NCBI RefSeq assembly: GCF_029227855.1
Contig: NZ_CP074356.1
Length of the DNA: 64,000 nt
Reading direction: 5' to 3' (one strand)
Source of the DNA: Escherichia coli
Lineage (GTDB): Bacteria; Pseudomonadota; Gammaproteobacteria; Enterobacterales; Enterobacteriaceae
Shown: in pieces, positions 4,811-54,755 of the stretch
Position numbering within the stretch: the stretch's first letter is position 1
Layout of the letters: each line of letters starts with the position of its first letter
Made by a program: the position numbers and the translations under genes
The notes under the pieces: model-generated
Told to the model about the DNA's origin: nothing
Database searches by the model: none
The model's input: only the letters and a program-made list of their open reading frames with translations

Positions 4811-7181
<2,371 letters not shown>

Positions 7182-12752: not shown

Positions 12753-13811
12753 ATGTTTTCAATGATATTAAGCGGGCTAATTTGTGGTGCTCTGCTGGGA
12801 TTTGTCATGCAGCGTGGGCGTTTTTGCCTGACAGGTGGTTTTCGCGATATGTATATCGCGAAAAATAATCGCATGTTTTACGCCTTGCTGATTGCAATTT
12901 CGGTACAAAGCGTGGGGGTTTTTGCGTTAATTCAGGCGGGCCTACTGACTTACGAAGCCGGGGCGTTCCCGTGGCTTGGTACTGTTATAGGTGGGTATCT
13001 TTTCGGGCTGGGAATTGTTCTGGCGGGTGGATGTGCCACCGGGACCTGGTATCGCGCGGGTGAGGGATTGATCGGCAGTTGGATCGCGCTTTTCACTTAT
13101 ATGGTGATGAGTGCGGTGATGCGTTCTCCACACGCCAGTGGTTTAAATCAAACCTTGCAGCACTACAGTACTGAACATAACTCTATTGCTGAGACTTTTA
13201 ATTTGTCTGTGTGGCCGTTGGTTGCCGTTTTGCTGGTGATAACGCTCTGGGTAGTGATGAAAGAGTTGAAGAAACCAAAATTAAAAGTCGCGACCTTACC
13301 GCCGCGCCGAACCGGGATCGCTCATATTCTGTTTGAAAAACGCTGGCATCCCTTTGTCACTGCTGTACTCATCGGTTTGATTGCGCTTTTAGCCTGGCCC
13401 CTGAGTGAAGCAACCGGACGCATGTTTGGGTTAGGAATCACTTCCCCAACGGCCAATATTCTGCAATTTCTGGTCGCGGGTGACGTGAAATACATTAACT
13501 GGGGCGTTTTCCTGGTGTTAGGGATCTTCGTGGGGTCATTTATTGCAGCCAAAGCGAGTCGTGAGTTCCGCGTTCGCGCAGCTGATGCACAAACAACATT
13601 ACGTAGCGGGTTAGGTGGTGTACTGATGGGCTTCGGTGCCAGTATTGCAGGTGGTTGCTCTATCGGTAATGGACTGGTTATGACTGCAATGATGACCTGG
13701 CAGGGCTGGATTGGCCTTGTATTTATGATTCTCGGAGTCTGGACTGCGTCCTGGCTTGTGTATGTTCGACCGCAGCGTAAGGCGCGACTGGCAACTGCTG
13801 CGGCAAATTAA
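12753..13811 (+). CDS. yeeE: Thiosulfate transporter YeeE/TsuA (sulphur transport, YeeE/YedE family)
   Basis: 352-aa polytopic membrane ORF with repeated GGCxxG motifs (LAGGCATGT, AGGCSIGN). Confidence 0.9.
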   Translation: MFSMILSGLICGALLGFVMQRGRFCLTGGFRDMYIAKNNRMFYALLIAISVQSVGVFALIQAGLLTYEAGAFPWLGTVIGGYLFGLGIVLAGGCATGTWYRAGEGLIGSWIALFTYMVMSAVMRSPHASGLNQTLQHYSTEHNSIAETFNLSVWPLVAVLLVITLWVVMKELKKPKLKVATLPPRRTGIAHILFEKRWHPFVTAVLIGLIALLAWPLSEATGRMFGLGITSPTANILQFLVAGDVKYINWGVFLVLGIFVGSFIAAKASREFRVRAADAQTTLRSGLGGVLMGFGASIAGGCSIGNGLVMTAMMTWQGWIGLVFMILGVWTASWLVYVRPQRKARLATAAAN

Positions 13812-45033: not shown

Positions 45034-45109
45034 TCCTCTGTAGTTCAGTCGGTAGAACGGCGGACTGTTAATCCGTATGTCACTGGTTCGAGTCCAGTCA
45101 GAGGAGCCA
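45034..45109 (+). tRNA. asnW: tRNA-Asn (anticodon GUU); integration target of the island
   Basis: 76 nt identical to asnV/asnU. Its 3' 16 nt form part of the island direct repeat. Confidence 0.98.
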
Positions 45110-45113
45110 AATT
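45094..45113 (+). repeat. attL direct repeat (tRNA 3' end)
   Basis: CCAGTCAGAGGAGCCAAATT. Confidence 0.9.
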
Positions 45114-45270
45114 CAAGTTTTCATGCTTATCTGTACGTCTCTATTTGTTTACGATTCAGTAAGTTAGCGTGAAAATCCTTCCCGGTGCGTATCTGGTTTT
45201 CTCTCTGTATCGGGATAATTTGGTGGTCAGATCTGGGGTCAGTTTGGTTCGATTCTGGAGTGACCCCCAA

Positions 45271-46532
45271 ATGTCTTTAAACGATTCTAAAATCCGCAAG
45301 TTAAAACCCTCTTCCCGTCTGGTAAAACTCTCCGACTCTCACGGTCTGTATCTGCTCGTCAATCCGGGCGGTTCACGCATCTGGTATCTCAAATATCGTT
45401 TCAACGGAAAAGAATCCAGAGTCAGTCTTGGCGCATACCCGCTTGTCTCACTGGCAGAAGCCAGGCAACAGCGCGACGGTATCCGTAAGTTACTGGCGCA
45501 GAATATCAACCCGGCGCAGCAGCGCATGGCGGAGAAAGCGGCCTGCTCCCCTGAAAAGTGCTTTAAGGCAGTGGCGCTGGCCTGGCACAAAACCAACAAA
45601 AAATGGTCGGCTGATTATGCCGCCCGTATTCTCGCCAGTATGGAAAACCATATCTTCCCGGCGATTGGTCATCTGCCAGTTGCCACTCTTAAAACGCAGG
45701 ATTTACTGCTTTGTTGCGGGTTATCGAGGATAAAGGCTTTCTGGAAGTCGCGTCCCGAACCCGGCAGCAACTCAGCAACATCATGCGCTATGCCGTTCAG
45801 CAGGGGCTTACCGAAAGCAATCCGGCGCAGCATCTGGATGGCGTTGTCGCCTCACCCGTAAAGAATCACTACCCCGCGTTACTGCTGGAGCGGTTGCCCG
45901 AACTGCTTGGCCGCATCGGTGACTATCAGCAGGGCCGGGAGTTAACACGGCTGGCGGTGGTGCTGACGTTGCACCTGTTTATCCGTTCCAGCGAACTGCG
46001 TTTCGCCCGCTGGAGCGAGATCGATTTCAGGCACAAAATCTGGACCATCCCCGCCACCCGCGAGGCAATCGACAAAGTACGGTTTTCGGGGCGTGGCGCA
46101 AAAATACGTACCCCGCATATCGTGCCGCTCTCCCGCCAGGCGATTGCCATTCTGAAACAGATACAGGAGCTTTCCGGCCATCTGGATCTGGTGTTTCCCG
46201 GTGATCATAACCCGTACAAGCCAATGAGTGAAAACACCACCAACCGGGCGCTACGCCTGATGGGGTATGATACGAAAACTGAAATCTGCGGGCATGGACT
46301 CAGGGCGATGGCCTGTAGCGCCCTGGTGGAGTCGGAGCTGTGGTCACGCGATACGGTGGAGCGGCAAATGAGCCACCAGGAGCGTAACAGCGTGCGGGCA
46401 GCCTATGTGCATAAAGCGGAGCATCTGGAGGCCAGAAAGGCCATGATGCAGTGGTGGTCGGATTATCTGGATGTGTGCCGCGAGGGGTATGTTGCGCCGT
46501 ACATTTATGCCCGGCAGCATAAGGCAGCCTGA
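45271..46532 (+). pseudogene. int: P4-type tyrosine integrase, disrupted by a 1-nt frameshift near 45706-45710
   Basis: The N-terminal part (MSLNDSKIRKLKPS...LKTQDLL) is in frame 1. The continuation (LLRVIEDKGFLEVASR...HGLRAM...RAAYVH) is in frame 3. Joining needs one extra base. The catalytic HxxR and Y are present downstream. Confidence 0.85.
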
Positions 46533-47869: not shown

Positions 47870-48487
47870 CTATTTTGCGACAATCATGAATTCAGTCATT
47901 CCTCCCTCCAGCGGTAGCCGTACACCTGTTTCACCCAGCGACCGCGACCGTCGCCATGACCCAGATCCGTCGCCGTCAGCGCCAGTGACTCCTTTTCGCT
48001 GAATCCCTGCGCCAGTATCCAGGACTGTCGTATAACGGGGACGCCCGCCTTTGGTGCCAAATACCACTTTTAACCGGGTTTCACCGCGGGAAATGGCTTT
48101 CAGCCACGTTTTCAGCGACTGTGAACTCTGTACCGCCTCCTGCGAACGCAGCCCCATCAGCCGCGCAATCTCCAGCGCTGCTGCCAGCCCTGCGTCCTGA
48201 GTACGGGCTTTCTCCATCACCTGCCTGCGTCCAGCCTGTCTCAGCACGGCCCGCAACGCTGCCATTTCGTTTTGCAACGTTCGTAAACCAATATCCAGCT
48301 CCAGCCGTTCCTCAATGTAGCATTCGATATGGCGAACCTTGATCTGCTCCACCCGCTGGATCTGGATATTCAGCGCCCGTAAATGTTCACTGAACCGTTT
48401 TGTAATATGGATACGGTCATTCACCGTTGTGAAGCTGCCGCCCGCTTTCTTCGCCAGCGCCTTCATTTCACTGCTTAATTTACTCAT
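47870..48487 (-). pseudogene. Degraded integrase/recombinase-like gene (N-terminal domain retained, internal deletion plus frameshift)
   Basis: The 205-aa ORF starts MSKLSSEMKALAKKAGGSFTTVNDRIHITKRF...IKVRHIECYIEERL, which looks like a recombinase N-terminal domain (recalled). After ...GGRPRYTTVLD the sensible continuation (WILAQGFSEKESLALTATDLGHGDGRGRWVKQVYG) lies in another frame (48021 to 47896). Confidence 0.45.
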
Positions 48488-50571: not shown

Positions 50572-53500
50572 ATGAGCGGAAAACCGGCAGCACGTCAGGG
50601 CGATGCCACAATGAAAGGTGGCCCGATAGTCCAGGGGTCGGCAGGCGTGAGGATTGGCGCGCCAACCGGCGTGGCCTGTTCAGTGTGCCCCGGCGGATTC
50701 ACTTCCGGTAACCCGGTGAATCCGCTGCTCGGTGCAAAAGTACAGCCCGGCGAAACCGATTTCGCGCTGCCCGGCCCGTTACCGTTCGTGCTCTCCCGCA
50801 CCTACAGCAGCTACCGGACGAAAACCCCTGCGCCCGTCGGTATCTTCGGTCCTGGCTGGAAAGCACCCTTTGATATCCGCTTACAGATACGCGATAACGA
50901 ACTGATACTCAATGATAACGGTGGCAGAAGCATTCATTTTGAGCACCTGTTTCCCGGTGAGGATGGCTTCAGCCGCAGCGAATTATTCTGGCTGGTGCGC
51001 GGCGGCGTGGCGAAACTGAATGAAAGTCACCGTCTTGCCCCACTCTGGCAGGCTCTGCCGGAAGAACTCCGCATGAGTCCGCATATTTATCTGGCGACGA
51101 ACAGTCCGCAGGGGCCGTGGTGGATACTCGGCTGGAGTGAGCGGGTACCGGGTGTGGATGAGGTGCTGCCTGCGCCATTGCCGCCGTACCGGGTGCTGAC
51201 CGGCCTGGTGGACCGCTTCGGGCGTACCCTGACCTTCCGGCGTGAGGCAGTTGGCGAATTTACCGGGGAAATCACCGGCGTGACCGATGGCGCAGGCCGT
51301 CAGTTCCGCCTGGTGCTGACCACGCAGGCGCAGCGGGCGGAAGAGGCCCAGCAGCAGGCGGTTGCAGCCGGAGCAAAACGACCAGATATCCCGGTTTCAT
51401 TGCCGGACTATACAGAATATGGCCGGGATAACGGCATCCGCCTGTCAGCGGTGTGGCTGACGCATGACCCGGAATACCCGGAGAATTTACCTGCCGCGCC
51501 ACTGGTGCGCTACGACTGGACGCCACGCGGTGAACTGGCGGCGGTGTATGACCGCAGCGGTACGCAGATGCGCCACTTTACTTACGATGATAAATACCGG
51601 GGCCGGATGGTGGCGCACCGTTACGCAGGCAGGCCGGAGATGCGTTACCGCTACGACGACATCGGGCGCGTGACGGAACAACGTAATCCGGCGGGTTTAA
51701 GCTACACCTATCAGTATGAGAAAAACCGCATCATCATCACCGACAGCCTGAACCGGTGCGAGGTGCTGCATACAGAAGGCGAAGCCGGGCTGAAACGGGT
51801 GGTGAAAAAAGAGCACGCTGACGACAGCGTCACACAGAGTCAGTTCGATTCCATTGGCCGCCTTCAGTCACAGACGGATGCGGCAGGCCGGACGACAGAA
51901 TACAGTCCGAATGTGGTGACGGGTCTCGTCACACGCATCACCACGCCGGACGGCAGGAAATCGGAATTTTACTATAACAACCAGAACCAGTTAACCTCAG
52001 CATCCGGGCCTGACGGACTGGAAATGCGCAGGAAATATGATGAGTACGGGCGTCTGACGCAGGAAACCGCTCGCAACGGCGATATCACCCGCTACAGTTA
52101 TGATAATCCGCACAGTGAATTACCCTCTGCAACTGAAGATGCGACGGGTAGCCGCAAGCAGATGACGTGGAGCCGTTACGGGCAGTTACTGACTTTCACC
52201 GACTGCTCAGGCTACCAGACCCGTTATGAATACGACCGCTTTGGTCAGATGACGGCGGTCCACCGTGAGGAAGGTGTCAGTCTTTACCGCAGCTATGACA
52301 GCCGTGGTCAGTTAATCTCGGTGAAAGATACGCAGGGCCGTGAAACGCAGTATGAGTACAACGGTGCAGGCGACCTGACCGCCATTATCACGCCAGACGA
52401 CAACAGAAGCGAGACACAGTACGATGCGTGGGGAAAGGCCGTCAGTACCACGCAGGGCGGGCTGACGCGCAGCATGGAATACGACGTTGCCGGACGTGTC
52501 ATCAGCCTGACCAACGAGAACGGCTGTCACAGCGACTTCAGTTACGATGTGCTCGACCGCCTGATACAGCAGAGCGGCTTTGACGGGCGGACGCAACGTT
52601 ACCGTTACGACCTGACCGGGAAACTCACGCAGAACGAGGATGAGGGGCTTGTCACCCTCTGGCACTACGACGAATCGGACCGTATCACACACCGCACGGT
52701 GAACGGCGAACCGGCAGAGCAGTGGCGGTATAACGCCCACGGCTGGCTGAAAGAAATCAGCCACCTGAGCGAAGGTCACCGGGTGGCGGTGCATTACGGC
52801 TATAACCGTAAGGGACGTCTCACCGGCGAGCGCCAGACGGTGCATAACCCGGAGACGGGGGAACTGCTCTGGCTGCATGAGACAAAACACGCCTACAACG
52901 AACAGGGTCTGGCAAACCGCGTCACGCCGGACTGCCTGCCTGCTGTGGAGTGGCTGACCTACGGCAGCGGTTACCTGGCGGGGATGAAGCTGGGCGACAC
53001 GCCGCTGCTGGAGTACGCGCGCGACCGCCTGCACAGAGAAACGGTGCGCAGCTTTGGCAGCATGGCAGGCAGTAATGCCGCATACGAACTGACCAGCACA
53101 TACACCCCCGCAGGCCAGTTACAGAGCCAGCACCTGAACAGCCTGGTGTATGACCGTGACTATGGGTGGAATGACAACGGCGACCTGGTGCGCATCAGCG
53201 GCCCGCGACAGACGCGGGAATACGGCTACAGCGCCACGGGCAGGCTGGCGAGTGTGCGCACCCTCGCACCGGACCTGGACATCCGCATCCCGTATGCCAC
53301 GGACCCGGCGGGCAACCGGCTGCCGGACCCGGAGCTGCACCCGGACAGTACACTCACAGTGTGGCCGGATAACCGCATCGCGGAGGATGCGCACTATGTC
53401 TACCGCCACGATGAATACGGCAGGCTGACGGAGAAGACGGACCGCATCCCGGCGGGTGTGATACGGACGGACGACGAGCGGACCCACCACTACCACTACG

Positions 53501-54753
53501 ACAGCCAGCACCGCCTGGTGTTCTACACGCGGATACAGCATGGAGAGCCACTGGTCGAGAGCCGCTACCTCTACGACCCGCTGGGACGGCGAATGGCGAA
53601 AAGGGTATGGCGGCGGGAGCGTGACCTGACGGGGTGGATGTCGCTGTCGCGTAAACCGGAGGAGACATGGTACGGGTGGGACGGCGACAGGCTGACGACG
53701 GTGCAGACTGACACCACGCGTATCCAGACGGTGTACCAGCCGGGAAGCTTCACGCCGCTCATCAGAATCGAAACAGACGTGACCGAACTGGAGAAAGCGC
53801 AGCGGCGAAGCCTGGCGGAGAAGTTACAGCAGGAAGGGAGTAAAGATGGTCACGGCGTGGTGTTCCCGCCTGAACTGGTGCGGCTGCTGGACAGGCTGGA
53901 GGGGGAAATCCGGGCAGACCGTGTGAGTGACGAAAGCCGGGCGTGGCTTGCGCAGTGCGGGCTGACGGTGGAGCGGCTGGCGGCACAGATCGAGCCAGTT
54001 TATTTGCCTGAGCGAAAAATACATCTTTATCACTGCGACCACCGGGGACTGCCGCTGGCGCTTATCAGTACTGAAGGTGCAACGGAATGGCGTGGGGAGT
54101 ATGACGAGTGGGGGAATCAGCTTAATGAGGAGAACCCGCATCATCTGTTCCAGCCATACCGCCTGCCGGGGTAGCAGTACGATGATGAATCGGGGCTGTG
54201 CTATAATCGTTATCGTTACTACGAGCCGTTACAAGGGAGGTATATTACACAGGACCCGATTGGGTTAAATGGGGGGTGGAATTTATATAAATATCCGCTG
54301 AATCCAATAAATTATGCAGATCCTCTTGGCTTAGCCGTAGATATAAACCACTTCCCAGTCAACGAAGACATACGAAATTATGCAGAGAAAGTTTGGAATA
54401 ATCCTAATATCATTACAATTGGAACACATGGTGATCCTCAATCAGTATATGATGAAAATTATAATAAGATAGATGTCAAGACATTAGCTAATGAGGTTCG
54501 AAATCATCCTAAATTTAAACCTGGAATGTCAGTAAGACTGTTATCCTGTAATACAGGAAAAGGAAATAACTCTTTTGCACAGCAATTGGCAGATGAACTA
54601 GGTGTGAGAGTCTATGCTCCTGACCAATATGACTGGTACTATTCAAATGGTAAGGTAGAGCCTTGGGGAGGATTCTATGATGCAAACAATCAATTGCAAA
54701 TGGACACGAATCAGCCTGGACATGAGTTTACATTCAAGCGAAGGAAACCATAG
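50572..54753 (+). pseudogene. rhs: PAAR-Rhs polymorphic toxin interrupted by a single in-frame amber codon (TAG 54172-54174)
   Basis: The N terminus is a PAAR-like domain ([11 protein letters not shown]...[10 protein letters not shown]), followed by many YD repeats. After ...PYRLPG* the same frame continues [31 protein letters not shown]...YADPLGL (DPxGL at 54319-54333) and a 139-aa AT-rich tip ending at 54753. Confidence 0.9.
54334..54750 (+). other. Rhs C-terminal variable (toxin) domain, family not recognised
   Basis: 139 codons follow DPLGL and composition switches abruptly to AT-rich. The string ...[10 protein letters not shown]... is followed 40 residues later by ...[11 protein letters not shown]... 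(His codon 54427, Cys codon 54547). Confidence 0.6.
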
Positions 54754-54755
54754 GT

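Follow-up and report, generated by a model that had tools for sequence, protein, structure and literature searches.

In the Escherichia coli stretch analysed here (64,000 nucleotides, referred to below as the window), a gene for a toxin of the Rhs family is interrupted by a single in-frame amber codon. A known E. coli Rhs allele has here most probably become an ordinary, very recent pseudogene through a nonsense change, Q1201*, which would be a strain-private inactivation and involves no new mechanism. By this account, a recent C-to-T transition private to the lineage would have turned Gln1201 (CAG) of an otherwise intact toxin gene into an amber. Translation would end inside the domain that forms the plug and aspartyl autoprotease, leaving at most a 136-kDa fragment of the Rhs shell that would lack both DPxGL motifs and the 16-kDa tip resembling clan-CD proteases. 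The 579 nt downstream of the amber would be a silent remnant, undecayed because the event is recent, and the immunity gene would stay open, with a ribosome-binding site of its own. The main value of the finding lies in annotation: the gene should be entered as a pseudogene that contains a premature stop, and no separate gene should be entered for the 579 nt past the amber. The case bears on no open question, and its by-products (e.g., a tip domain family with a predicted clan-CD fold and the frequency with which this toxin is broken) are mildly useful.

The rhs reading frame opens with an ATG and runs for 1200 codons to the amber (Table 1), whose immediate surroundings at 54160-54180 read cgc ctg ccg ggg TAG cag tac. 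Beyond the amber the same frame is open for 192 sense codons, up to the next stop, a TAG at 54751-54753. Straight translation of 50572-54756 meets one internal stop only and ends in ...FKRRKP and a stop, in agreement with the sequence-only reading, in which the amber split the gene and the frame continued to 54753. Given the local base composition (A 0.35, T 0.27), a run of 192 open codons after the amber has a chance probability of about 6e-7, and the two remaining frames of the downstream region contain 12 and 23 stops; the post-amber segment is therefore a real coding sequence that has been cut off. The first in-frame ATG, GTG, or TTG past the amber is the ATG at 54526 (codon 118), which leaves 117 codons without a start. 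Calculated masses are 136.2 kDa for the truncated Rhs protein and 158.5 kDa for the full-length protein, and these values replace earlier figures of 134 and about 156 kDa.

Table 1. Features of the rhs locus and its island, and substitutions private to the window.
Feature	Position	Strand	Remarks
Truncated rhs ORF	50572..54174	+	DUF6531, YD/RHS repeats, first 24 residues of Rhs-associated core domain
Amber TAG	54172..54174	+	Single C>T at 54172; CAG (Gln1201) in every relative examined
Rhs-associated core domain (plug and aspartyl autoprotease)	54100..54333	+	Interrupted by amber; DPIGL 54253-54267, DPLGL 54319-54333
Toxin tip, untranslated, AT-rich	54334..54753	+	Residues 1255-1393 and stop; predicted clan-CD cysteine-protease fold
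Candidate dyad in tip	His1286 54427-54429, Cys1326 54547-54549	+	
Putative immunity gene, 182 aa, TPR/Sel1-like	54810..55358	+	Open; annotated tetratricopeptide repeat protein in relatives
tRNA-Asn (GUU)	45034..45109	+	ARAGORN; annotated in JNEC-KY178; 3' end is left island boundary
Imperfect direct repeat of tRNA-Asn 3' end and flank	55642..55694	+	77% over 53 nt to 45089-45141
Integrase pseudogenes, frameshifted	45271-46532 and 47896-48487		Relatives' annotation
Window-private, hisD R287H	6322		
Window-private, yeeA A296S	18572		
Window-private, cobT L153F	39125		
Window-private, rhs Q1201*	54172		
Window-private, immunity M106I	55127		
Window-private, one substitution in an integrase pseudogene			

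Judged from its sequence, the interrupted gene is an Rhs/YD-repeat polymorphic toxin: it has the repeats, a core domain with DPxGL motifs, and a variable AT-rich tip with a putative immunity gene downstream of it. The YD-repeat family PF05593 matches the protein in seven stretches (E 1e-61), and TIGR01643 also matches. In the intact orthologue, residues 1-1254 match NF041261 (RHS_core) with 2592 bits against a cutoff of 2000, and residues 1177-1254 match TIGR03696 (Rhs_assc_core). Within the latter domain, DPIGL occupies residues 1228-1232 and DPLGL residues 1250-1254, with 17 residues between them. Both motifs are encoded in the DNA, and the amber at codon 1201 precedes both, so that neither can be translated in this strain; the predicted truncated protein keeps the first 24 of the 78 residues of the core domain. 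An earlier expectation that the product would be without the C-terminal plug, the protease motif, and the toxin is borne out by this position of the stop inside Rhs_assc_core. GC content shows the drop that is classical for Rhs genes, with about 0.60-0.69 in the rhs core and, starting near 54200, 0.30-0.40 across the tip and the gene that follows it.

The architecture is shared with Rhs1 of Photorhabdus laumondii (PMC8636562) and RhsA of Pseudomonas protegens (PMC8765631), in which a YD-repeat shell is likewise joined to a plug and aspartyl protease, two DPxGL motifs are spaced by 17 residues, and the second of them is followed by a small toxin (16 kDa in the window). In P. laumondii Rhs1, the C-terminus is cleaved after the second DPxGL motif, whose Asp is catalytic (PMC8636562). 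The Rhs plug has about 95 residues and seals the barrel, and cleavage is needed for toxicity (PMC8636562; PMC8765631). In contrast to these two proteins, the rhs gene of the window has no prePAAR, transmembrane domain, EagR chaperone gene, or vgrG adjoining it, and its plug is halved by the stop. The Pfam PAAR models gave no match at E<=0.01 on the Rhs N-terminus, where DUF6531 was the only domain found, and no T6SS genes are annotated across the 64-kb equivalent of the window in the near-identical genome JNEC-KY178. Family knowledge suggests that the intact toxin would normally be delivered by a T6SS. The truncated protein would presumably be non-toxic.

Comparison with relatives places the origin of the lesion in a single base. 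The closest known protein is WP_089570725.1 (NF041261; RhsA-D type), whose gene is identical over 4182 nt except for the C>T at 54172 and lies in the same island, near tRNA-Asn and yeeN and upstream of the same TPR immunity gene; in contrast to the strains that carry it, the window has the amber at codon 1201 and M106I in the immunity protein. The three nearest genomes (JNEC-KY178, NRZ14408, and isolate 362) all encode this one intact 1393-aa protein, and position 54172 is the sole difference of the window from them within rhs. Together with N3 and LH85-a, these genomes have C at 54172 (CAG, Gln1201) in five cases out of five, as an earlier proposal of a CAG-to-TAG point change had anticipated. 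In all five relatives, rhs is annotated as one uninterrupted 4182-nt CDS, “RHS element core protein”, with an intact product of 1393 aa. The rhs genes of N3, LH85-a, and JNEC-KY178 were compared with that of the window base for base and are of equal length without an indel, in keeping with the earlier view that no frameshift, IS, or deletion is involved; for NRZ14408 and isolate 362, a 24-kb alignment gives C at 54172 and no gap within rhs.

The TAG allele is a singleton throughout the collections searched. A 901-nt query around the amber has full-length matches in 88 complete E. coli genomes, the best of them 99.9% identical and none 100%. The 80-mer centred on the TAG is represented in 218 of 5,426 complete E. 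coli genomes, with no exact match among the 218, and neither the 185,579 species-representative genomes nor a metagenome collection has a copy of a 42-nt pattern that includes the TAG. Exact look-up of the truncated 1200-aa product finds no copy among about 15 billion proteins. A degenerate-pattern search of species-representative genomes returned eight homologous Rhs cores (from E. coli, Shigella, E. albertii, Pseudocitrobacter, and MAG contigs), each of which has CAG at the site. The residues that had been put forward as typical of E. coli Rhs proteins around PGQQ recur in each of the eight as PYRLPGQQ(Y/H)D(E/K)ESGLYYNR. A ninth match, from a Prolixibacteraceae MAG, carries T there; it lies outside an Rhs reading frame and was counted as a chance match, about two of which are expected. 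On these comparisons and searches, the TAG allele is a derived, lineage-private CAG-to-TAG nonsense change.

The divergence of the window from its nearest relatives provides a background for this substitution. The last 24 kb of the window match JNEC-KY178 almost perfectly, and a base-by-base comparison over all 64 kb gives 12 substitutions and 0 indels. With NRZ14408 as outgroup, six of the substitutions are private to the window (Table 1), and the same number is private to JNEC-KY178. GC>AT transitions make up four of the six window-private changes, 54172 included. The five window-private changes that fall in intact genes are all protein-altering (4 missense, 1 nonsense, 0 synonymous), a proportion that is mildly unusual but not significant (P ~0.2). 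JNEC-KY178 has a private CAA>TAA change of its own at 12906 (Q52*) in tsuA/yeeE (12753-13811), annotated there as an internal stop, and the window keeps CAA at that codon. This private nonsense change in the sister genome indicates that nonsense SNPs are ordinary at this level of divergence.

Recent inactivation and sequencing error had both been named as explanations of the amber, and a singleton allele fits both. An error in sequencing or assembly, which would mean a genuine C at 54172 and an undamaged gene, is nevertheless unlikely. It would account for the absence of the TAG allele from every collection searched and for the fact that one substitution is the only within-gene difference from three intact orthologues. 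Yet the assembly looks well polished, with 0 indels against the nearest genome over 64 kb, and the six private differences in both the window and its sister are what real divergence predicts. There is also no Dcm or Dam motif at 54172 and no change in homopolymer length, and the substitution is a GC>AT transition like three of the five other private changes. Finished genomes typically have error rates that give fewer than one expected error per 64 kb, compared with six private SNPs here. The lesion is thus presumably real rather than a base-call error.

Some full-length and exactly wild-type protein, which would be biologically meaningful, could still be made from a leaky allele, either by near-cognate tRNA-Gln decoding of UAG or by a supE-type suppressor elsewhere in the genome; this possibility is highly improbable. 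The residue at 1201 was originally Gln, and Gln is also what suppressor-free E. coli incorporates at UAG (Nilsson and Ryden-Aulin 2003, as reported in PMC8954436 and PMC9481147). The base after the amber is C, which is mildly favourable, and not U, which terminates strongly (PMC5289835). Both the downstream frame and the immunity gene have stayed open, but an open downstream frame is equally expected after any recent mutation. UAG readthrough measured in E. coli MG1655 was about 500-fold below a 12% value for UGA, or roughly 0.02% (PMC9481147), and with so low a published basal rate, any full-length Rhs protein would amount to a trace. The window encodes three tRNAs, all of them tRNA-Asn. A programmed readthrough or recoding site was considered and rejected: the stop is not conserved in relatives (0 of 218 genomes, and CAG in 8 of 8 homologues), hence no programmed signal is indicated, and RNA folding over the 100 nt at 54166-54265 is no better than that of shuffled sequences (z = 0.28), so that no stimulatory structure is apparent. 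Of the earlier suggestion of readthrough or suppression, the possibility in principle stands; support for it does not, given the singleton allele, the lack of RNA structure, and the very low basal UAG readthrough. The post-amber segment might also be read as a separately initiated orphan toxin ORF resembling orphan rhs-CT modules, a reading whose probability is close to nil. Orphan rhs-CT/immunity cassettes are known in enterobacteria. In the window, however, no in-frame ATG, GTG, or TTG occurs for 117 codons, and the ATG at 54526 lies past the candidate His1286 and would yield only 75 aa; the absence of a start codon rules this reading out. A promoter scan also found no plus-strand site in 54175-54810, which is weak evidence in the same direction. 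The sequence-only reading had itself proposed a look at orthologous loci for such an ORF, and these are annotated as one continuous 4182-nt CDS. An ordinary recent nonsense pseudogene therefore remains the preferred explanation.

The tip that the amber removes consists of 139 aa (16 kDa). Searches by sequence, with the single sequence or a profile, found nothing in Pfam, NCBIfam, or the PDB, including no sequence match to Pfam C80 or DUF4347, and only a fold search was informative. Its AlphaFold model has a mean pLDDT of 94.3, and the fold-search matches include, lower in the list, gingipain, CHAT, legumain, and caspases. The model argues with confidence for a clan-CD (CPD/Tce-like) caspase-haemoglobinase fold. 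The two candidate dyad residues, His32 and Cys72 in tip numbering, each follow a beta-strand in the model. Nine sequence relatives were found by word search; an alignment of eight tip sequences shows no variation at Cys72 (SCNTG), and the seven sequences that extend over His32 (G-T/G/A-H-G) all have this residue. From the modelled fold, the tip may act as a protease.

A profile search with the tip gave 3,577 cluster representatives at E<=1e-3. Carriers of the domain include the C-termini of other Rhs proteins (DUF6531, Tox-PAAR-like), a CdiA-like haemagglutinin-repeat protein, and giant multi-copy proteins. On this broad spread in profile searches, the tip is a widespread polymorphic-toxin domain, a family without a Pfam model. 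Tce1 and Tce2 of P. aeruginosa are putative cysteine-protease T6SS effectors (PMC13323088). Compared with these two effectors and with the cysteine-protease domains of MARTX and TcdA/TcdB (peptidase C80), the tip is 8-18% identical, without a sequence-level match. The arrangement differs as well: Tce1 and Tce2 are Hcp cargo and have no immunity genes (PMC13323088), whereas the tip forms the end of an Rhs protein and has an immunity-like gene as its partner.

The gene downstream of the tip encodes a TPR/Sel1-like protein whose TPR profile matches are weak, and an immunity function is suggested by its position. It has its own Shine-Dalgarno sequence, GGAGG at 54801-54805, four bases 5' of the ATG. 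Annotators pick the ATG at 54810 as the start, and a 186-aa version is found in K_EC180. An alternative upstream ATG (54756-54809) would add the hydrophobic 18-residue N-terminus MRYFLFIFITIPLISGGH to the immunity protein. A scan of the C/G ratio for Rho-loading regions, which would bear on possible polarity on the immunity gene, found C in excess of G only around 54279-54350 and G in excess of C elsewhere. The immunity gene had been described as intact; its frame is indeed open, but the gene is not identical to that of relatives, as a window-private G>A at 55127 changes Met106 to Ile. None of the 91 complete E. coli genomes with the immunity gene has an exact match to the M106I allele. Together with 54172, position 55127 brings the private changes in the toxin-immunity pair to two within 955 bp.

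Besides M106I, a second finding goes beyond the sequence-only reading: other lineages carry independent lesions that break this toxin. In 19 of the 91 complete genomes (K_EC180 and 18 others, mostly from swine), the invariant tip Trp is replaced by a stop (W1355*), which shortens the CDS by 117 nt. The W1355* codon lies at 5735-5737 in the K_EC180 locus, and its equivalent in the window is at about 54634-54636. The rhs core of K_EC180 has, in addition, lost 72 nt in frame, near 51573-51644 of the window. In O139:H1 W13-16, an IS1 (locus 5385-6154) separates the two DPxGL motifs. Its insertion site corresponds to 54277-54284, and the 8-bp overlap there resembles a target duplication; ETEC1701 gives the same two-piece match across an IS1 transposase.

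The swine ETEC clade with W1355* (e.g., K_EC180) and O139:H1 W13-16 with IS1 resemble the window in that the toxin end is lost at the same locus and immunity is retained. They differ from it in that their lesions lie at other sites and are shared within clades, whereas Q1201* is a singleton. The immunity gene is present in 91 of 91 genomes, and with independent lesions this makes loss of the toxin with retention of immunity a recurrent event. Among complete E. coli genomes with this toxin, roughly one in five has a broken copy, and the window adds a further case of the fast turnover of interbacterial toxin genes with immunity kept. A literature search for rhs pseudogenes with premature stops and retained immunity found nothing relevant. 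It is a speculative and improbable idea that the repeated loss of the toxin end (three independent lesions in about 92 carriers) reflects selection and not drift, with M106I possibly coupled to the amber. If it were true, weakened M106I immunity would make the toxin self-harming and its knockout favoured, and rare Gln readthrough would be the only source of toxin left.

The rhs locus lies between tRNA-Asn/yeeO and yeeN-amn-shiA. The island contains two integrase pseudogenes, an HTH_35 gene, a 153-aa gene without an assigned function, and the rhs-immunity pair. The imperfect repeat of the tRNA-Asn 3' end and flank (Table 1) is likely the right end of this degenerate island of about 10.5 kb. Beyond the repeat, in intergenic sequence, 55899-55916 is an exact 18-nt copy of a segment of the rhs core (53635-53652, encoding WMSLSR), which may be a remnant of an older rhs fragment. 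A private GG>AA change of JNEC-KY178 (55925-55926) adjoins this copy.
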